From NCBI GenBank assembly GCA_019326865.1, contig GCA_019326865.1_4101.1: 64,000 nt of DNA. The stretch is one strand, 5' to 3'. Below, piece by piece: positions 20,727-56,775 of this stretch. The stretch is from a phage. Positions within the stretch are counted from its first letter, which is position 1. Each line of letters starts with the position of its first letter. The position numbers and the translations under genes were made by a program. The notes under the pieces were generated by a model, which did no database searches, was not told the origin of the DNA, and saw only the letters and a program-made list of their open reading frames with translations.

Positions 20727-20733
20727 TAAAATA

Positions 20734-20770
20734 TTGTGAACATATTAAATCTTTATGATATAATGTTCAC
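20734..20770 (+). promoter_or_regulatory. promoter with extended -10 TGATATAAT inside an inverted repeat
   Basis: TTGTGA 20734-20739; TATAAT 20759-20764; arms GTGAACAT 20736-20743 and ATGTTCAC 20763-20770. Confidence 0.45.
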
Positions 20771-20796
20771 ATATTTTTTTGATAATGGAGATATAG

Positions 20797-22446: not shown

Positions 22447-22463
22447 GACAAAATAGAAGTTAA

Positions 22464-22472
22464 TGATATAAT
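22464..22472 (+). promoter_or_regulatory. extended -10-like TGATATAAT element
   Basis: exact motif 5 nt upstream of terminator hairpin; functional status unclear. Confidence 0.25.
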
Positions 22473-22476
22473 GTGA

Positions 22477-22506
22477 GGTGACAGTATATACTGTCACCTT
22501 TTTTTA
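22477..22506 (+). terminator. rho-independent terminator (22-nt perfect palindrome)
   Basis: GGTGACAGTATATACTGTCACC then TTTTTTT. Confidence 0.8.
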
Positions 22507-23123
22507 ATCCTGAAAGGTTCCTATAAGGAAATGATTAAAAGCCTAATCCACTCGAAAATGTAGAGGGTAGATGAGTAGTCCTTTCAGTACGAACAGCAGA
22601 TGAAACCCGTTAGATGATGGCATAGTTTGAACCACTCACGGCAATGCGGCTGTATAAAGAACTCCAATAGGATAAAGAGAGTTCCTAGATAGACATATAA
22701 GGATCGCACCTTACCAATTATCTAAGGGAGATTTCATAAGAAATATGCGGTCGGAATTATACAATATAGTTGCGTCCAAATTTTGTGAAATCAAATACAA
22801 GTACTGGTCATATGGTATTTGTATTATGTGTCGGGATGTTTAAGACCGACGACCGTTGCTACAAGAACCGCGATAGAGAGAAACAGAGCAACCCGCTTTC
22901 GTCTCGTAAGAGAATTCGTGATATGAACTATGTGAAGGCCACCAGCGTCAAACTTTTTTGTTCTTTCCCCTGCGGGGGGATGAAATATGCTCAAGCAAAC
23001 CTCGTCAATATTAATTAAAAGACTTTATAATACTTGTAGAATTGTACATGCACCGCATGGAGAATTCTACTGATGTTGATGTAATCAACATCACGTATAT
23101 TCATTGATGTTTCCATAGGAATA
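22507..23123 (+). other. GC-enriched non-coding island (candidate structured RNA or foreign remnant)
   Basis: no convincing ORF; sampled 60-nt lines 42-48 percent GC vs about 27-33 percent in flanking genes; bounded by terminator and palindrome. Confidence 0.4.
23071..23093. repeat. perfect inverted repeat TGATGTTGAT-gta-ATCAACATCA
   Basis: 10-bp arms, 3-nt spacer, 30 nt upstream of CDS 23124; no T-run. Confidence 0.6.
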
Positions 23124-31502: not shown

Positions 31503-32641
31503 CCCTTTTGCAAATATATGAAGATTTAATGCACTTGTGCAATACAAACGATGCGTTCTTTTATGTGGATCATAAAAGTCCTGCTGGTGGAACGTATCGT
31601 GTATTCAGTTATCGTCTAGCATCATATACTGATTTCATGCAACCCAATGCATTAGAAACCCGTGGATCTATGTGGGAAATTGATGAAGAAGGTAATATGA
31701 TTCGTTGTGCTGCTCGTACTATGAAAAAGTTCTTTAATGCTTACGAGAATCCTGCTACAATGTTCCCTGCTAACACCACATGCGATGACATTGCAGTAGT
31801 GATGCCTAAATTGGATGGTTCAGTGATCAGTACTTACCGTGACAATGATGGTGAGATTCGTTGTAAATCACATACTGCATTGTATTCTGACCATGCGATT
31901 AACAGTACTCGACTTATTAACGAGAACCAGAATCTATATCAGTACATCGATGAAGCTGAACGTTTAGGTTACACAGTTAATATGGAGTATACAAGCCCAG
32001 AGTACCGAATTGTATTACCGTATCAGGTAGAACAATTGTTTGTGCTGAACGTTCGTCATCGTGTAAGTGGTGAGTTGCTATGTGGTAAAGCATTACGTGA
32101 TAAGTTTCCATGTCTTTCACAGTACAGCACTAATATGACAGGAAAAGATATTCATCACACTTTTCCTGTGCGAAATTCATTCCGTGAAAGCGTTGATGAA
32201 GTTCATAAAATGCTTGACATTGAGGGTTTTGTTTGCATTTTAAAAGATGGGACAATGTGTAAAATAAAGACTGACTGGTACAGTTCATTACATCTTACAA
32301 AAGATAGTATTATTATTGATTCTCATTTATATGAAGCTGTATTAAATGGTTCAAGTGATGATTTAAAACAATTGTTCAGTTCTGACGAATATGCTATGCA
32401 AAAGATATTAAGAATGGAACAGTTGGTTTTTTCGTGCTATAATGCATTACAAGATGAAGTAGAAAGCTTCGTCAATGAACACAAGCACTTAGAGCGAAAG
32501 GAATTCGCATTGAAGGTTCAGACGTGCTTATCTAGTGAACTGAATCGTCAGGGCTTGGCATTTGCAATGTATAATAATAAGAAAGTTGATTACAAAGATA
32601 CACTTATCAAATACATGAAAATTATACTAAAAGATTTTTAG
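31499..32641 (+). CDS. rnlA: RNA ligase 1 (T4 RnlA-like)
   Basis: 380 aa; KxDG motif 'MPKLDGSVIS'; N-term 'FYVDHKSPAGGTYRVFSYRLASYTDF' parallels T4 Rnl1. Confidence 0.9.
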   Translation: MTLLQIYEDLMHLCNTNDAFFYVDHKSPAGGTYRVFSYRLASYTDFMQPNALETRGSMWEIDEEGNMIRCAARTMKKFFNAYENPATMFPANTTCDDIAVVMPKLDGSVISTYRDNDGEIRCKSHTALYSDHAINSTRLINENQNLYQYIDEAERLGYTVNMEYTSPEYRIVLPYQVEQLFVLNVRHRVSGELLCGKALRDKFPCLSQYSTNMTGKDIHHTFPVRNSFRESVDEVHKMLDIEGFVCILKDGTMCKIKTDWYSSLHLTKDSIIIDSHLYEAVLNGSSDDLKQLFSSDEYAMQKILRMEQLVFSCYNALQDEVESFVNEHKHLERKEFALKVQTCLSSELNRQGLAFAMYNNKKVDYKDTLIKYMKIILKDF

Positions 32642-32671
32642 TACTAACTAGCCTAAGCACAAGGAGAAGTG

Positions 32672-36318: not shown

Positions 36319-36327
36319 TGATATAAT
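36319..36327 (+). promoter_or_regulatory. extended -10 element TGATATAAT
   Basis: 32 nt upstream of CDS 36359; no clear -35. Confidence 0.35.
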
Positions 36328-36358
36328 TTGATTATATCATTAATAAGGAGAGGTTGAA

Positions 36359-50874: not shown

Positions 50875-51135
50875 ATGACAAACATCCAGAATTTGACGTC
50901 TATTATTTTTTATGCTACAGTGGTGATGTATGCTATTGTACTTATTTTAACAGTTTTTATTTACAAAGATTACAAAAAAGGCTTTATTAATAGTACAACA
51001 ATGAAGTTCAATTCTAAATTTGAAGCAATTATATTTTATGTTTTGACAACATCATATTTGTTGTGTATAATGTTACTAGGGTCATTGATTTATATTTTAT
51101 ATACAACATTATTTGCAATTGGAGCTATTTTATGA
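50875..51135 (+). CDS. small membrane protein
   Basis: 86 aa, multiple hydrophobic helices. Confidence 0.5.
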   Translation: MTNIQNLTSIIFYATVVMYAIVLILTVFIYKDYKKGFINSTTMKFNSKFEAIIFYVLTTSYLLCIMLLGSLIYILYTTLFAIGAIL

Positions 51136-51947: not shown

Positions 51948-52700
51948 ATGATATCAGAAAAATTTATAAGTAATGAGGGAAACAAGAGATTACTTATTAT
52001 CTCAGGAGCAGGTCTTTCCGTTGAAAGTGGGATGGAGCCATTTCGATTTGATGATGGCTTATGGGATACATTTAAAATTAATGACGTATGTAATATTGCA
52101 AATTTAGATACAAAATATCATGTTGTTCATTCGTTTTATAACACACTGCGTGTTAAACTGGGTCAATGTGAACCAAATGCAATGCATTATTTTATAAAAT
52201 CCTTAGAGGACCAATATGGTGATTGTTTTCTTCATATGACCTCCAATATGGATGATCTTTATACACGTATTGGTGGCAAAGAACTAAAACTTCATGGTAA
52301 TTTATGTGAAGTGATAGAAAATTATAGTATTAATGGTGATGATTATAACATTGTTAACTGTGGTTATGAGCCATATATACCAAAACATGATGTTTTTGCT
52401 AAACCAAATGTAGTGATGATTGGTGAATATCACCGTTATGTTGATGGTGTTCGTTTGCCAATATATGAAGAAAGAAATAATGTTTTAAAAACACTTAATG
52501 AAAACGATACTGTGATTGTTATTGGAAGTAGTGATACAGTACTTGTGTGGTCCAGATTAGCTGCGGCATTACCCTGTTATAGCGTTAATGTTAACATTCG
52601 TAAAAATGATAATGATTTTCTGTTCAATGAAAAAATTATTCAACCAGCTACCAAAGCAATACCACAATTAGAGACTATAATTAAGGAACGTATGAAATGA
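51948..52700 (+). CDS. Sir2-family (sirtuin-like) NAD-dependent enzyme
   Basis: 'ISGAGLSVESGMEPFR', 'TSNMDDL', catalytic 'LHGNL', 'PNVVMIGEY'; ATG after AAGG. Confidence 0.75.
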   Translation: MISEKFISNEGNKRLLIISGAGLSVESGMEPFRFDDGLWDTFKINDVCNIANLDTKYHVVHSFYNTLRVKLGQCEPNAMHYFIKSLEDQYGDCFLHMTSNMDDLYTRIGGKELKLHGNLCEVIENYSINGDDYNIVNCGYEPYIPKHDVFAKPNVVMIGEYHRYVDGVRLPIYEERNNVLKTLNENDTVIVIGSSDTVLVWSRLAAALPCYSVNVNIRKNDNDFLFNEKIIQPATKAIPQLETIIKERMK

Positions 52701-53248
52701 GTGTTAAAGAAGTTCCCTTTGGTGAATATGGTTCACGTGCCAATTTTGTATTTTGCTATTTCTTTGCAAGAAAATGTAACCCTTACGAAAATTACGAATT
52801 GAATGATATACCAGAAGTAAATTTAGTATTACTTCAATTACGTTGGGATGGCCTTCTAGGGGGATGTGGTGGGACAGTTGAAAGTACTGATATCTCACTA
52901 GAAGATGCGTTACGTCGTGAAATTCAAGAAGAGATGGATTACAATATTTTTGTTTCCCATCTTCGACCACTTAAAACTTTTGAAATTTACCCAGGTGCAA
53001 ACAGTCATAGTTTTAGCTATGAAGTAACCTATGATGAGTTGAAACACATTAGAGATGGATACACTAATGCTAAACATGCGAGTGCTGAAGTGGCTGGTGT
53101 AAATTTATGTCATATTTCTCGTTATTCTAAGGGACAAAATCGAGAAGCGGGATATAATAATCTTATGACTCAGAACTTCATTGGTACAGCAAAACAAGAA
53201 TTGGAGTATCTGGTTCAAAAAGAAAACTTACTAATTAGTTATCTATAG
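52697..53248 (+). CDS. Nudix hydrolase-like protein
   Basis: Nudix-box-like 'GGCGGTVESTDISLEDALRREIQEEMDY'; ATGA overlap with Sir2. Confidence 0.6.
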   Translation: MSVKEVPFGEYGSRANFVFCYFFARKCNPYENYELNDIPEVNLVLLQLRWDGLLGGCGGTVESTDISLEDALRREIQEEMDYNIFVSHLRPLKTFEIYPGANSHSFSYEVTYDELKHIRDGYTNAKHASAEVAGVNLCHISRYSKGQNREAGYNNLMTQNFIGTAKQELEYLVQKENLLISYL

Positions 53249-53257
53249 GAGTTTAAC

Positions 53258-53578
53258 ATGTCTTACTCAATGTTTTTGGATGATATCCGTGATGCAAATC
53301 TATATTATCCAAACCAAGATATGGTGGTATGTCGTGACTTTAAAAGTGCATGTGAATATGTTATTGAAAATGGAATTCCAGCATTTGTATCATTCGACCA
53401 TGACTTGGGTGATGTGAGCGAAGACGAAAAGACTGGATATTCTTTTGCTAAGTTTCTTATTGATTATATGTTTGATAATAATATTAAAGAACCGTTTGAG
53501 TACTTTGTTCACAGTAGTAATCCTGTTGGTAAAATTAATATTGAAACATACTTAAACAATGGGTTTAACGCATTATGA
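53258..53578 (+). CDS. hypothetical protein (possible receiver-like domain)
   Basis: 106 aa; acidic 'FLDDIRD' and 'SFDHDLGD' pattern; assignment tentative. Confidence 0.45.
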   Translation: MSYSMFLDDIRDANLYYPNQDMVVCRDFKSACEYVIENGIPAFVSFDHDLGDVSEDEKTGYSFAKFLIDYMFDNNIKEPFEYFVHSSNPVGKINIETYLNNGFNAL

Positions 53579-53877
53579 TTCAAACACACATCAAAAGTCT
53601 TATTTGTACTGTTCTGTTAGGTGTAGGTGTTCTTTGGTTCGGATATTATCACGAGAACACTAAGCGTACTAACATTCACTACAATACCGCAGAAGTTGTT
53701 AGTTTAGGGCAATGTAGTGAGTCAAAATGTGCATTTACGTACAAAACCAGTAATGGTGAAATACGTAATGGACTATCAAGAGAACCAGTTTCGATTGGTC
53801 AACTTGTTTACCAGGAGTGCTGGGAAGAAAAGGTTCGAGGTTCACGTTGCTATGTTGAATACGAACCAAATATGTAA
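53575..53877 (+). CDS. small membrane-anchored protein
   Basis: 100 aa; N-terminal TM 'LICTVLLGVGVLWFGYY'. Confidence 0.5.
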   Translation: MIQTHIKSLICTVLLGVGVLWFGYYHENTKRTNIHYNTAEVVSLGQCSESKCAFTYKTSNGEIRNGLSREPVSIGQLVYQECWEEKVRGSRCYVEYEPNM

Positions 53878-53937
53878 TAATCCAAGTCAATAACATTAGT
53901 CGAGTACAAGGATGTACTCATAACTCAAGGATGTTTT

Positions 53938-55377
53938 ATGAAAAAATATACAATTGACACAAACGTACTACTATCTGATCCAAATGCGTCTGTTGCTTTT
54001 GATGGTGCTGCAATCATTCTACCATTTACAGTACTGGAAGAATTGGATTCGATTAAGAGTCGCAATGTTGATGTTTCACGTGATGCTCGTGTTGCGATTC
54101 GTAACATTGAAGCAATTATTGCAGAGGCATCACATAATGAGATTAGTTGTACTGGTGTTAATATTGCTGATGTTCATACCAATATGAATCCTGATAGCAA
54201 ATTGTTTGTTATTACAACCGAAGAAGCTGAGGCACTAATTCGTACTAAAGGTTCAGACGAGAAAGTTCAAACCCTTCTTAAAAGTACTGTACCTGATGAT
54301 AAAATTATTCTGGTTGCTTTAGCAACCGAATCAGTACTGGTAACTCGTGATATCAACATGCGTATCAAAGCACTAAGTTATGGTGTCGAGGTACAAGACT
54401 ATCGTCATGATATTGTTATTGGTGATAGTGATTTGATGCACATTGGTCAACATCATTTGGAACTCAATTTTTGGGATGTATATAGCAATTTAGCAAATAC
54501 AAATATTAAAACTGAACAAATTGGTCGTCGATTGTATCATTACATTCCTAAAAGCTTGATTGGTCATTTACTTCCACAAAATCTATGCATTGGTGATTAT
54601 CTATATGATGATGCTGATGTATTATTTGTATATGAAGGCCAATCAGCCATTGAGGAAGATGATGGCACACTAACACCAGAAGATATTTTGGTATTCCAAG
54701 ACATTGGTCAATCTGTAGCTTTGCGTGCTAAAGTATGGGATATTAAAGCAAAGAATATTCAACAAGCACTTGCAATCAACAGTATTCTCGATCCTGATGT
54801 ACACCTAACAGTGCTGCTAGGTTCTGCTGGAACTGGCAAAACATTAATTACGATTGCTACTGCACTAGAGTTAGTACTGGAAAAACGCAAATACGACCGT
54901 ATTATCTTCTCTAAAACACAAGATTCACAGTTTGAAGATATAGGATTCTTGCCAGGTTCTGAGACAGAGAAAGTTATCCCATTCTGTGGACCTGCAATTG
55001 ATGCTCTTGAGTATCTTCATAAAGATGATGTATCACCACAAGGTAGCATCGAAGAGATTCTCAAACGTAACGTGATGCAATTTAAAGCATTGAACTTTAT
55101 TCGTGGTCGTTCTTTTGCCAATACAATTCTAATTGTGGATGAAGCACAGAACTTAACACCAGCCCAGTTAAAAACTGTCTTGACAAGAGCCGGAGAAAAC
55201 TGTAAAGTAATCATACTTGGTAACCTAGCACAGATTGATAACAAGTTTATCAGTCCAGTAAACAGTGGTTTGACATATGTAACTGAAAAATTCAAGGATT
55301 GGAGTGGTTGTCGTATCATTGAATTAGAAGGTGTTGTTCGTTCACCACTTGCTGAATTTGCTGAAGAAAATATGTAA
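53938..55377 (+). CDS. phoH: PhoH-like ATPase with N-terminal PIN domain
   Basis: PIN 'YTIDTNVLLSDP'; Walker A 'GSAGTGKT'; Walker B 'LIVDEAQN'. Confidence 0.85.
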   Translation: MKKYTIDTNVLLSDPNASVAFDGAAIILPFTVLEELDSIKSRNVDVSRDARVAIRNIEAIIAEASHNEISCTGVNIADVHTNMNPDSKLFVITTEEAEALIRTKGSDEKVQTLLKSTVPDDKIILVALATESVLVTRDINMRIKALSYGVEVQDYRHDIVIGDSDLMHIGQHHLELNFWDVYSNLANTNIKTEQIGRRLYHYIPKSLIGHLLPQNLCIGDYLYDDADVLFVYEGQSAIEEDDGTLTPEDILVFQDIGQSVALRAKVWDIKAKNIQQALAINSILDPDVHLTVLLGSAGTGKTLITIATALELVLEKRKYDRIIFSKTQDSQFEDIGFLPGSETEKVIPFCGPAIDALEYLHKDDVSPQGSIEEILKRNVMQFKALNFIRGRSFANTILIVDEAQNLTPAQLKTVLTRAGENCKVIILGNLAQIDNKFISPVNSGLTYVTEKFKDWSGCRIIELEGVVRSPLAEFAEENM

Positions 55378-55405
55378 TATAATATGGGATGTACTGTCCC
55401 ATACA

Positions 55406-55414
55406 TGATATAAT
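55406..55414 (+). promoter_or_regulatory. extended -10 element TGATATAAT
   Basis: 31 nt upstream of CDS 55446. Confidence 0.35.
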
Positions 55415-55445
55415 GTTGTTATCATAATACAAAAGGAGATATAAA

Positions 55446-55634
55446 ATGGCTAAACAACCCAAGAAAAAAGAACCAGTAGCTAAAGTTAAAAAAGAAAAAG
55501 TTATTCAATCCAAAGAACAACGTATGTACGAACAACGTAAGAGTGAAACTCTATCTGGGCTACAAGCTCTACGCAAACAAGGTATTCTAACTCGTGCACA
55601 ATATCGTGAACTAGTATCTATGAAAGGTTTTTGA
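55446..55634 (+). CDS. small basic protein
   Basis: 62 aa Lys-rich; AAGGAG RBS; TGATATAAT element upstream. Confidence 0.5.
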   Translation: MAKQPKKKEPVAKVKKEKVIQSKEQRMYEQRKSETLSGLQALRKQGILTRAQYRELVSMKGF

Positions 55635-55737
55635 TTCATTTGAAGCAATATTATGGAGTTCTTAATAAATACTTTTATAAGAATAATAATACTTTTTATT
55701 AAATTAAAAAGAACTCCATGTGTTATTTCAGTTTTTT

Positions 55738-55765
55738 ATCCCTGTCAATTGGCAGGGATTTTTTC
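55738..55765 (+). terminator. rho-independent terminator
   Basis: ATCCCTG-TCAATTGG-CAGGGAT then TTTTT. Confidence 0.7.
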
Positions 55766-55860
55766 TATCTCTATCTTGACAAAAGGTTTAAAACATGAGA
55801 ACATACATTAAAGGTAGAATGACATTCCATTAGGTTATTTTTAACTTAAAGGAGATATAT

Positions 55861-56418
55861 ATGTTTTTTGACCAAACATTTACGTTGTATCACGATTCTG
55901 GTAAAGTTGAGATTATTGATAATCTGCTACTGTACATTTCTGAGCATGAAGGGATAGACCGTTTTCATAGTAAGATGAAATTCGATTTAGCTGAATTCAA
56001 CAAAAAGAATCGTGAAACTTTTTGGAAGAACCGATTCTATTATGAAATGTTCCCAGAAAGGTTTGTTGGTTATTATCTTTGTACTGAGAAAGGTTTATTA
56101 GTATCTCCAGATTTACTTATGGGTGAATACATGGTTCTCTATAATGAGTACTGGAAAAATAAACGTAACGCTCGTGACATTGAATGGAGACACAAGCGTT
56201 CGTACATGTACAAACACAACCACTCCCGATACAAACGTCCTAAGACTCAACAAGAGCGTCGTATGGCGTGTGCGGTATTGAAGGATGAGGGGGAACCTGA
56301 TATACGTGGTAAGCGTAAAATGCGTTCAATACCTTCATACTGGGATGATATCAGAACAAGACACAGTACTGGCTGGAAATACAGTACTAAGCGTAAAAAA
56401 CAATACAAAGGGAGCTAA
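55861..56418 (+). CDS. hypothetical protein with basic C-terminus
   Basis: 185 aa; AGGAG RBS; terminator overlaps stop. Confidence 0.55.
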   Translation: MFFDQTFTLYHDSGKVEIIDNLLLYISEHEGIDRFHSKMKFDLAEFNKKNRETFWKNRFYYEMFPERFVGYYLCTEKGLLVSPDLLMGEYMVLYNEYWKNKRNARDIEWRHKRSYMYKHNHSRYKRPKTQQERRMACAVLKDEGEPDIRGKRKMRSIPSYWDDIRTRHSTGWKYSTKRKKQYKGS

Positions 56419-56433
56419 TGCTCCCTATTTTAT
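56410..56433 (+). terminator. rho-independent terminator
   Basis: GGGAGC-TAAT-GCTCCC then TATTTTA; overlaps stop of 55861-56418. Confidence 0.6.
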
Positions 56434-56445
56434 AGGTTAAACTTT

Positions 56446-56775
56446 ATGAGCAAAATTAATGTTGATGTAGTTATTGGTTATATTGAAATTGAACCGTGTA
56501 GTATTGATACAATGATTGACACTCTTAGTAAGTATCGTTTAGAGTACAGGGGACATATTAGTATTTCGCCCGACGGTGGTTACGGTGGATTCCATGGATA
56601 CAATGTAATTTGGACCAGAGAAGAAACTGACGAAGAATATAATACACGAATTGAAGCTGAATCTAAAAGACGTGAAGAAATTGATCGTCAAGAAATGAAA
56701 CAATTAATGAACAAGAAATCATTAAGTTCCGAAGAGAAAGAAAAACTTCTAACATACATCAAGGATTACATGTAA
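56446..56775 (+). CDS. hypothetical protein
   Basis: 109 aa ORF. Confidence 0.5.
   Translation: MSKINVDVVIGYIEIEPCSIDTMIDTLSKYRLEYRGHISISPDGGYGGFHGYNVIWTREETDEEYNTRIEAESKRREEIDRQEMKQLMNKKSLSSEEKEKLLTYIKDYM

Follow-up and report, generated by a model that had tools for sequence, protein, structure and literature searches.

What governs the gene for a PIN-PhoH fusion protein in a jumbo coliphage, and do the two short hairpins that flank this gene act as a pair? We address this question in a 64,000-nucleotide stretch of phage DNA (GenBank assembly GCA_019326865.1, contig GCA_019326865.1_4101.1; hereafter, the window), in which the gene, here called phoH, occupies positions 53938-55377 of the + strand, the strand that holds nearly all genes of the window. 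The initial annotation of this locus described two hairpins sharing the 9-mer GGATGTACT and proposed that they mark regulatory or processing sites around phoH. Both hairpins exist, at positions shifted from those first reported: hairpin 1 (GAGTACAAGGATGTACTC) lies at 53902-53919 rather than 53913-53930, and the 15-mer of hairpin 2 (GGGATGTACTGTCCC) at 55386-55400 rather than 55388-55402. Each is conserved and is found where a regulatory site would be expected, one in the 5' leader and the other just past the stop codon, but the two are not a matched pair. The best current reading, drawn from sequence comparison, is that hairpin 1 may be a new phage-borne example of the classical two-site leader bound by the regulator CsrA, common to phoH and the late sigma-factor gene.

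The window comes from a jumbo coliphage resembling Asteriusvirus, with approximately 92-95% identity to phages UE-S1, 121Q, and phAPEC6. Across positions 53000-56500, identity is 94.6% to Escherichia phage UE-S1 and approximately 92% to 121Q, PBECO4, phAPEC6, G17, and other Asteriusvirus phages. These Asteriusvirus relatives are jumbo myoviruses of approximately 350 kb. More remote matches to phoH were found in RaK2 and K64-1; in Munch, 7t3, and SE_PL; in CBB and GAP32; and in Yen9-04, BF, and pEa47. The relatives infect E. coli, Salmonella, Pectobacterium, and Erwinia. Genome-wide motif counts are based on the complete genome of phAPEC6 (MK817115.1; 352,598 bp), joined from eight pieces.

Hairpin 1 (GAGTACA-AGGA-TGTACTC, + strand) starts 25 nucleotides (nt) past the stop codon of the upstream gene. 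It folds into 7 base pairs (bp) closed by a 4-nt loop, with a free energy of -8.5 kcal/mol and a z-score of -4.15, and none of 200 shuffled sequences was as stable. The 18-mer is identical in seven of eight Asteriusvirus genomes (the window, UE-S1, G17, phAPEC6, ph0011, WPEC5, and JNE01). In the other, A4, it reads GAGCAC-AAGGAT-GTGCTC, in which a T-to-C change on one arm is compensated by an A-to-G change on the other. Munch-like phages carry GAGAC-AAGGAAA-GTCTC, GGGGC-AAGGAAA-GCCCC, GAGACA-AGGAA-TGTCTC, GGGGCA-AGGAA-TGCCC, or GGGGC-AAGGATA-GCCCC at the same place. A hairpin is also retained at this position, with other loops, in RaK2-like phages and two metagenomic relatives; for example, GAGAAC-AAAATT-GTTCTC and GAGGTT-CTA-AACCTC are found among the RaK2-like relatives and locus L127.

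A near-copy of hairpin 1 was encountered at a second locus while we were deriving the late-promoter consensus of phAPEC6 (ATAAATA). This sister hairpin, GGTACAAGGATTGTACC, lies in the leader of the gp55-like late sigma-factor gene of phAPEC6 (approximately 155960-156020, minus strand of MK817115.1; locus L191), beginning 9 nt past the -10 element, an extended -10 sequence (TGCTATAAT). The sigma leader reads TGCTATAAT-AACATTGAT-GGTACAAGGATTGTACC, and the phoH leader reads TCAATAACATTAGTC-GAGTACAAGGATGTACTC. The pattern GTAC-AAGGAT(T)-GTAC occurs at only two places in the whole phAPEC6 genome, the phoH and sigma genes. The sister hairpin is conserved in Asteriusvirus, the Munch-like clade, Mimasvirus, and Eneladusvirus (further loci L199, L200, L201, and L203), taking the form GGTACAAGGAATGTACC in vB_Ec-M-J, GGGACACGGATCGTCTC in SE_PL, and AAAACAAGGATCGTTTT in CBB and pEa47. 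The distance between the -10 element and the sigma-leader hairpin is the same across clades; in Asteriusvirus, CBB, and pEa47, this element is an extended -10 (TGnTATAAT). In three clades, ACAUGGAG is found at the sigma-gene Shine-Dalgarno sequence. A third candidate from phAPEC6, GTACTAAAGGATTTTTAGTAC, was rejected as a member of this group: its homologue in the window, at 32624-32644, has AAAGAT and no GGA.

To count base pairs, we used 11 distinct hairpins, seven from phoH leaders and four from sigma leaders. The five inner stem pairs are paired in all 11, and changes on both sides are observed at five of six pairs. The covariation score was 0.709 compared to 0.321 in shuffled sequences, none of 500 shuffles reached 0.709, and slid registers all scored 0.22 or less; it counts against this comparison that the hairpins were chosen by eye at orthologous positions, which favors structure. 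In the loop, C-A-(A/C)-G-G-A, the C, A, G, G, and A positions are invariant in all 11 hairpins. The stem thus varies while the loop is fixed, and we therefore interpret the element as an RNA hairpin whose loop is read by a trans-acting factor. Hairpin 1 very likely functions as an RNA stem-loop that is recognized specifically through its loop.

The loop and its surroundings suggest a candidate for this factor. Hairpin 1 includes GUACAAGGAUGU, which matches the consensus RUACARGGAUGU obtained for E. coli CsrA by in vitro selection (SELEX) at 12 of 12 positions; both the consensus and its hairpin-loop context have been described (PMC4347634, PMC2896534). In this predicted CsrA site 1 (GTACAAGGATGT, 53904-53915, + strand), the GGA is located in the loop of the 7-bp hairpin. 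The exact consensus (RTACARGGATGT) occurs once in the window, where 0.06 matches are expected, and once in the 352.6 kb of phAPEC6, in the phoH leader, where 0.22 are expected. A second predicted site (ACTCAAGGATGT, 53923-53934, + strand), read as ACUCAAGGAUGU, matches the consensus at 10 of 12 positions and covers AAGGA at 53927-53931, the Shine-Dalgarno sequence of phoH, which precedes the ATG by 6 nt. Only the RaK2-like phages depart from AAGGATGTTT(T)ATG, which all other clades share unchanged. The GGA of site 2 lies 20 nt 3' of the GGA of site 1, and the corresponding spacing in Munch-like leaders is 23 nt by our own count. One CsrA dimer is able to span two sites separated by 10-63 nt (PMC10746276), a range that includes the spacing in the window. 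No CsrA homologue was found in the window or phAPEC6 (best tblastn E value, 1.3), and the ligand would therefore be a host protein. Enterobacteria are known to carry csrA.

These observations suggest a mechanism in which a host CsrA dimer would be tethered at hairpin 1 and bridge to the site over the Shine-Dalgarno sequence, where it would block binding of the 30S ribosomal subunit at phoH. Translation of PIN-PhoH would in this way be coupled to the Csr state of the host, as at glgC and ColE7 cel, and the sister hairpin would place the late sigma-factor gene, which lies outside the window, under the same control. The binding, the repression, and the transcripts that would carry the hairpins are predictions from the nucleotide sequence. 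Control of phoH translation by host CsrA through hairpin 1, with CsrA as the reader of the loop, is in our estimate a serious possibility that falls a little short of probable.

Several observations weigh against this interpretation. We noticed the match to the CsrA consensus when the hairpin had already been selected, which makes the rarity figures post hoc in part, and a search allowing up to two mismatches shows no enrichment of the consensus in the window (29 matches compared to 23.4 expected). The AAGGA of the loop resembles a Shine-Dalgarno sequence and could equally attract the 30S subunit. We tried the base that follows GGA as a way to distinguish CsrA sites (GGAU/A) from ribosome sites (GGAG) and rejected it as too weak: GGAG is absent from the 11 loops, which discriminates only weakly, as G follows GGA in only 37% of phage Shine-Dalgarno sequences. 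Three Munch-like phoH hairpins (loci L013, L014, and L125) have GCA where ACA was 100% conserved in the SELEX experiments. The phoH hairpins of RaK2-like and CBB-like phages lack a GGA loop, and no sigma-leader hairpin was found in the sigma leaders of K64-1, a Vibrio phage, and a PA5oct-like (Pseudomonas) phage; because the GGA loop is missing from these leaders, any link to CsrA would be limited to certain clades. Furthermore, the phoH and sigma stems resemble each other within a clade (GTAC/GTAC in Asteriusvirus; GAGAC or GGGAC with GTCTC in the Munch-like clade; AAAAC/GTTTT in CBB-like phages), which could reflect a clade-specific phage factor or simply gene conversion or shared ancestry. 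In Asteriusvirus, the sequence immediately before hairpin 1 has no match to a late (ATAAATA) or sigma-70 promoter. Finally, the literature that we searched contained no binding, transcript-end, or expression data for this phage group, no paper tying CsrA to Rak2-like phages, and no Asteriusvirus transcriptome.

Given that the loop resembles a Shine-Dalgarno sequence, the hairpin might instead present AAGGA to the 3' end of 16S rRNA, serving the 30S subunit as a standby site, an enhancer, or a decoy with no involvement of CsrA; at a standby site, the subunit would then slide to the true Shine-Dalgarno sequence 20 nt downstream. The anti-Shine-Dalgarno sequence is complementary to the loop sequence AAGGA(U/A), which is also a second copy of the gene's own CAAGGATGT, and hairpins that display a genuine Shine-Dalgarno sequence in the loop are common in the genome of the window. 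This explanation accounts less well for the invariant C and A 5' of (A/C)GGA and for the U or A that follows GGA in all 11 loops, features that fit CsrA better, if weakly. In SE_PL, the loop reads ACGGAU, a poorer Shine-Dalgarno match that still retains A(N)GGA, and a loop of 4-7 nt on a stable stem would presumably be a poor partner for extended pairing with rRNA. We consider a Shine-Dalgarno mimic unlikely, and we judge equally improbable a phage-encoded reader, in which hairpin 1 and its sister would be operators for PIN-PhoH itself, for a RegA-like repressor, or for another factor. With PIN-PhoH as the reader, this would amount to autoregulation or cleavage, and with any of these readers the two sites would form a small phage regulon. 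A phage-encoded reader would fit the greater likeness of phoH and sigma stems within clades than between them, a hint of a coevolving clade-specific reader, and PhoH2 has been reported to be a sequence-specific RNA helicase and RNase, with a post-transcriptional role suggested in jumbo phages (PMC7824862). Our analysis identified no candidate protein, the invariant part of the element is the loop rather than the stem, and a perfect match to an independently derived consensus for a host protein (0.06 expected per window) would have to be a coincidence.

Two other explanations dispense with a reader of the RNA loop. Hairpin 1 could have a purely structural role, guarding the phoH mRNA from decay that depends on the 5' end or acting as a processing signal for RNase E or RNase III within a polycistronic transcript. 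RaK2-like relatives and locus L127 retain the hairpin with an unrelated loop, and in RaK2-like and Munch-like phages it begins 4-7 nt past CTAAATAC, a sequence like the predicted late promoters of CBB, so that it could be 5'-terminal. In addition, AACAUU just upstream resembles an RNase E site, given the preference of this enzyme for RN/WUU. A structural role leaves unexplained the loop CA(A/C)GGA, which is invariant in 11 hairpins from two loci and four genera, as well as the exact CsrA consensus, and Asteriusvirus has no recognizable late or sigma-70 promoter directly upstream of the hairpin; we regard this explanation as quite unlikely. Alternatively, the inverted repeat could be a DNA operator bound by a dimeric repressor just 3' of a promoter. 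In the sigma leader, the palindrome is located at approximately +3 to +20 relative to the -10 element, the classical position of an operator. However, the half-sites vary between clades yet remain complementary while the center is invariant, which is the opposite of what operators show, and no promoter is recognizable upstream at phoH, making a DNA operator highly improbable. The two-site CsrA leader remains our preferred interpretation of hairpin 1.

The promoter that serves phoH in Asteriusvirus is probably distant, with the gene being read from upstream, for example from a perfect sigma-70 promoter (TTGACA-17-TATAAT, 12 of 12 positions) at 51043-51071, inside or beside the open reading frame (ORF) 50875-51135, through the genes for SIR2, NUDIX, and cREC proteins. 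A late promoter before hairpin 1 was rejected for the window: late promoters of phAPEC6 have the form (T)ATAAATA, and the phoH spacer contains only TCAATAAC, or CACTAAC in WPEC5. In the RaK2-, Munch-, and CBB-like relatives, (C/T)TAAATAC is present before hairpin 1. This is the predicted late-promoter motif of CBB (Table S7, PMC5259590). These relatives (loci L008-L010, L013-L025, and L116-L129) have a second, larger hairpin 5' of hairpin 1, not present in Asteriusvirus, with (C/T)TAAATAC in its 3' arm. The arms of the larger hairpin covary (CAGTATT/AAATACTG, TTGTATTT/AAATACAA, and ATCGTA/TACGAT).

Other features of the phoH leader were considered. A three-codon ORF, ATG TAC TCA TAA, overlaps hairpin 1 at 53912-53923 and reads ATG TGC TCA TAA in A4; with AAGG immediately before the ATG, its translation is unlikely. 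A long-range helix, AUCCGAGU/ACUC..GGAU, that would hide the Shine-Dalgarno sequence is weakened in the window (AAGT) and not conserved in ph0011 or A4, and was rejected. We also rejected a multicopy family of AGGA-loop hairpins in the window, of which there are 10 on the + strand compared to 5.8 expected, mostly weak or in coding sequence. No Rfam family was found at threshold anywhere in the window, and positions 53800-55500 gave only sub-threshold chance matches.

Short hairpins of this kind were also observed in metagenomic phage sequences. A scan of IMG/VR for the exact hairpin (GAGYACAAGGATGTRCTC) found one match in 121Q and 11 elsewhere. The 18-mer GAGCACAAGGATGTGCTC, which matches the CsrA consensus at 11 of 12 positions, is intergenic in five unrelated families of IMG/VR phage contigs (L026/L034, L027/L037, L028/L030, L029/L033, and L032/L036). 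In two of the five, it lies 19-24 nt upstream of a GGA-containing Shine-Dalgarno sequence, and one family has it as a terminator core. In a control scan that allowed any tetraloop, AGGA/TCCT was the top loop class (10 of 90), other loops reached 7, and the stem was not enriched. The recurrence of GAGCACAAGGATGTGCTC in IMG/VR is suggestive only.

The notion that hairpin 1 and hairpin 2 form a matched pair defined by GGATGTACT was not borne out. The window contains exactly two copies of the 9-mer, at 53910 and 55387, and none outside the two hairpins, compared to 0.39 copies expected from dinucleotide shuffles. This count alone is not significant, as two or more copies were present in 6 of 100 shuffles. 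The two hairpins are not matched as structures, because the 9-mer occupies a different register in each: the loop and 3' arm in hairpin 1, and the 5' arm and loop in hairpin 2. An alignment of the spacer after the stop codon showed that GGATGTACT is absent from the downstream hairpin in every relative examined, leaving the downstream copy unique to the genome of the window; its counterparts are GGGACGTACT in UE-S1, GGGACATTAT in G17, GGGACATAAT in phAPEC6, GGGACAATAT in ph0011, and GGGACATTCG in WPEC5. A genome-wide search, which the initial annotation had recommended, gave four copies in phAPEC6 compared to approximately 2.3 expected by our own estimate from base composition, a frequency consistent with chance, which the initial annotation had itself named as an outcome that would refute its proposal; one of the four is at phoH, and the others are at unrelated places. 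The shared 9-mer is almost certainly a coincidence of a single genome, and we give hardly any credence to a common processing or regulatory signal at both ends of the phoH transcript. Hairpins 1 and 2 have different origins and probably different roles.

Hairpin 2 (TATGGGAT-GTACT-GTCCCATA, 55383-55403, + strand) begins 6 nt past the phoH stop codon. It folds into 8 bp, including one G-U pair, with a 5-nt loop (-9.6 kcal/mol; z-score, -2.09), and 6 of 200 shuffles were as stable. Asteriusvirus phages conserve the stem TATGGGAY/GTCCCATA but differ in the loop. Rho-independent terminators have a G+C-rich stem and a T-tract, whereas hairpin 2 has only three G-C pairs in addition to the G-U pair and is followed by CATGATATAA, with no T-tract; our terminator scan did not call it. 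In every other genus, a textbook intrinsic terminator, consisting of a GC hairpin and a T-run, is located within approximately 10 nt of the phoH stop codon. This is the case in CBB (GGGGATAC-TTAG-GTATCCCC-TTTTT), GAP32, Yen9-04, BF, the Munch-like clade (in Munch, GGGGCA-GTACT-TGCCCC-ATTTCTTTT), and RaK2 (TTTCGGTACTGA..TCAGTACCGAAA). Hairpin 2 occupies the same position as the phoH terminators of Mimasvirus, Eneladusvirus, and the Munch-like and RaK2-like clades. GTGATATAAT comes after the terminator in Munch-like phages, which also have a TGATATAAT promoter behind it, and in Asteriusvirus, hairpin 2 (GGGAC/GTCCC core) is followed directly by CA-TGATATAAT.

One interpretation of this arrangement, which we consider moderately probable, is that hairpin 2 is a decayed phoH terminator, a positional homologue that has lost its T-tract and been squeezed against the promoter of the next gene. 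A point against this interpretation is that it is based on position and general stem similarity rather than on a demonstrated loss of function. Given the lost T-tract and the extended -10 promoter directly adjoining it, hairpin 2 would now be at most a weak terminator or a 3' stabilizer. The predicted promoter in question is an extended -10 element, TGATATAAT, at 55406-55414 (+ strand), 3 nt past hairpin 2. This motif (TGnTATAAT) is enriched in the window, with 11 copies compared to 3.8 expected; none of 100 shuffles reached 11, 10 copies are on the + strand, and at least seven are in intergenic spacers. The homologous position in A4 and RaK2 has a perfect TTGACA-17-TATAAT. Downstream is a small basic ORF of 62 amino acids at 55446-55634 (+ strand), which is annotated in relatives and belongs to PHROG 24119, a family of unassigned function. 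The first canonical intrinsic terminator, ATCCCTGTC-AATT-GGCAGGGAT followed by TTTTTT, was found by the scan at 55738-55759 (+ strand), 335 nt beyond hairpin 2, and is annotated in UE-S1 and G17. It is probably the real 3' boundary of the unit.

The gene between the hairpins is, as first described, a PIN-PhoH fusion; its product is of the PhoH2 type, with a PIN endoribonuclease domain joined to a PhoH ATPase that resembles RNA helicases. The 479-residue product of ORF 53938-55377 has an N-terminal PIN_4 domain (Pfam; residues 4-156, covering profile positions 1-132 of 132, E value 1.3e-20; nt roughly 53947-54405) and a C-terminal PhoH P-loop ATPase domain (Pfam; residues 269-473, E value 6.5e-46; nt roughly 54742-55356). 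It matches PHROG 2765, a family that the full-length fusion has to itself, end to end (1e-160), and its ATPase core matches the solved PhoH structure PDB 3b85 (6.7e-24). Both Pfam domains are also present in the annotation of CBB_123. In an alignment of 12 relatives with identity down to 70%, the residues D7 (IDTN), E34/E35 (VLEELD), D120/D121 (PDDKII), and D138 and N140 (TRDIN) are unchanged; from their motif context, we take these to be the catalytic residues of the PIN domain. The Walker A motif GSAGTGKT (G295-T302) and the Walker B residues D401-E402 (VDEAQN in the window) of the PhoH domain are likewise unchanged. A check of the PIN active site had been proposed along with the fusion, and because its acidic residues are intact and invariant in the 12 relatives, the site looks active. 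The PIN-PhoH fusion is kept throughout the Rak2-like jumbo phages. The combination of domains has been described previously in jumbo phages, where its role is considered enigmatic and post-transcriptional regulation is one suggestion (Iyer et al. 2021, PMC7824862).

Upstream of phoH, positions 51948-53877 encode a SIR2 protein, a NUDIX protein of the Nudt16-like (RNA-decapping) type, a cREC_REC (cyclic-phosphate-processing receiver) protein, and a small membrane protein. These genes and phoH make up a cluster centered on RNA and NAD that is kept in relatives. Elsewhere in the window, a 365-nt gene-free spacer at 22447-22811 contains a TGATATAAT promoter at 22464-22472, followed within approximately 8 nt by a perfect terminator, GGTGACAGTATATACTGTCACC and T7. 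This spacer had no Rfam match and could represent a very short RNA, an attenuator, or an insulating arrangement. At 20727-20796, the loop of a 9-bp stem (TGTGAACAT/ATGTTCACA) holds TGATATAAT, and T7 follows; at 36319-36339, the sequence TGATATAAT-ttg-ATTATATCA places a -10 element within a perfect inverted repeat. These palindrome-embedded promoters suggest the fusion of a terminator with a promoter, or of a promoter with an operator.

As first stated, the finding at this locus was ordinary: the PIN-PhoH fusion was already known, and the likeness of the two hairpins is coincidental. What has emerged instead is a conserved, covarying RNA stem-loop common to two jumbo-phage genes, one of which encodes the late sigma factor that switches on the virion genes. 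The best-known high-affinity CsrA site is reproduced exactly in hairpin 1, within the layout of classical two-site repression. If host CsrA binds there, a developmental switch of a lytic phage would be coupled to a global post-transcriptional regulator of the host, and the enigmatic PhoH proteins of phages would gain a regulatory context. We speculate that Rak2-like enterobacterial jumbo phages have wired host CsrA into their own program through perfect CsrA sites displayed on hairpins in the sigma and PIN-PhoH leaders, a broader proposal that we consider possible but doubtful. Were it true, the phage would read the Csr state of the host, including its carbon and growth status and the levels of CsrB and CsrC, and use it to gate late transcription and RNA processing. 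The recurrence of the near-identical hairpin GAGCACAAGGATGTGCTC before Shine-Dalgarno sequences in several unrelated contigs would then suggest a convergent and widespread phage strategy.

Comparison with known systems places both the gene and its leader. The window protein resembles PhoH2 of M. tuberculosis and the PIN-PhoH proteins of jumbo phages in the order of its domains, PIN followed by PhoH, in its intact PIN acidic residues, and in its Walker A and B motifs; PhoH2 proteins are reported to be sequence-specific RNA helicases and RNases (PMC7824862). In this family, ATP-dependent unwinding of RNA is coupled to its cleavage. In mycobacteria, a small antitoxin-like ORF (phoAT) is reported immediately upstream of PhoH2 or overlapping it, whereas the window phoH has no such overlapping ORF; the ORF upstream, 53575-53877, belongs to PHROG 14661, codes for a predicted membrane protein that lacks a Pfam match, and ends 60 nt before phoH. 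The phoAT feature belongs to the mycobacterial toxin-antitoxin interpretation and not to the PIN-PhoH domain family as such. Among phage systems, the translational operators of T4 gp43, RegA, and gp32 likewise consist of a small hairpin or element beside the Shine-Dalgarno sequence in a T4-related myovirus, and they provide post-transcriptional control. The T4 operators have other sequences and are read by phage proteins, and no AU-rich consensus of the RegA type was seen at the phoH leader. The leaders of E. coli glgC and ColE7 cel are similar to the phoH leader in having a hairpin site and a second site over the Shine-Dalgarno sequence, with a spacing in the range that a CsrA dimer can bridge. 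At ColE7 cel, this two-site architecture includes a hairpin between two genes of one polycistronic transcript on an extrachromosomal element (PMC2896534), a placement resembling that of the phoH leader. The hairpin 1 site matches the SELEX consensus at 12 of 12 positions, compared to 9 and 7 of 12 for the cel sites. Unlike in glgC and cel, the sites described here are predicted, the target is a gene of a lytic jumbo phage, and a sister site is found in the leader of the phage late sigma factor.

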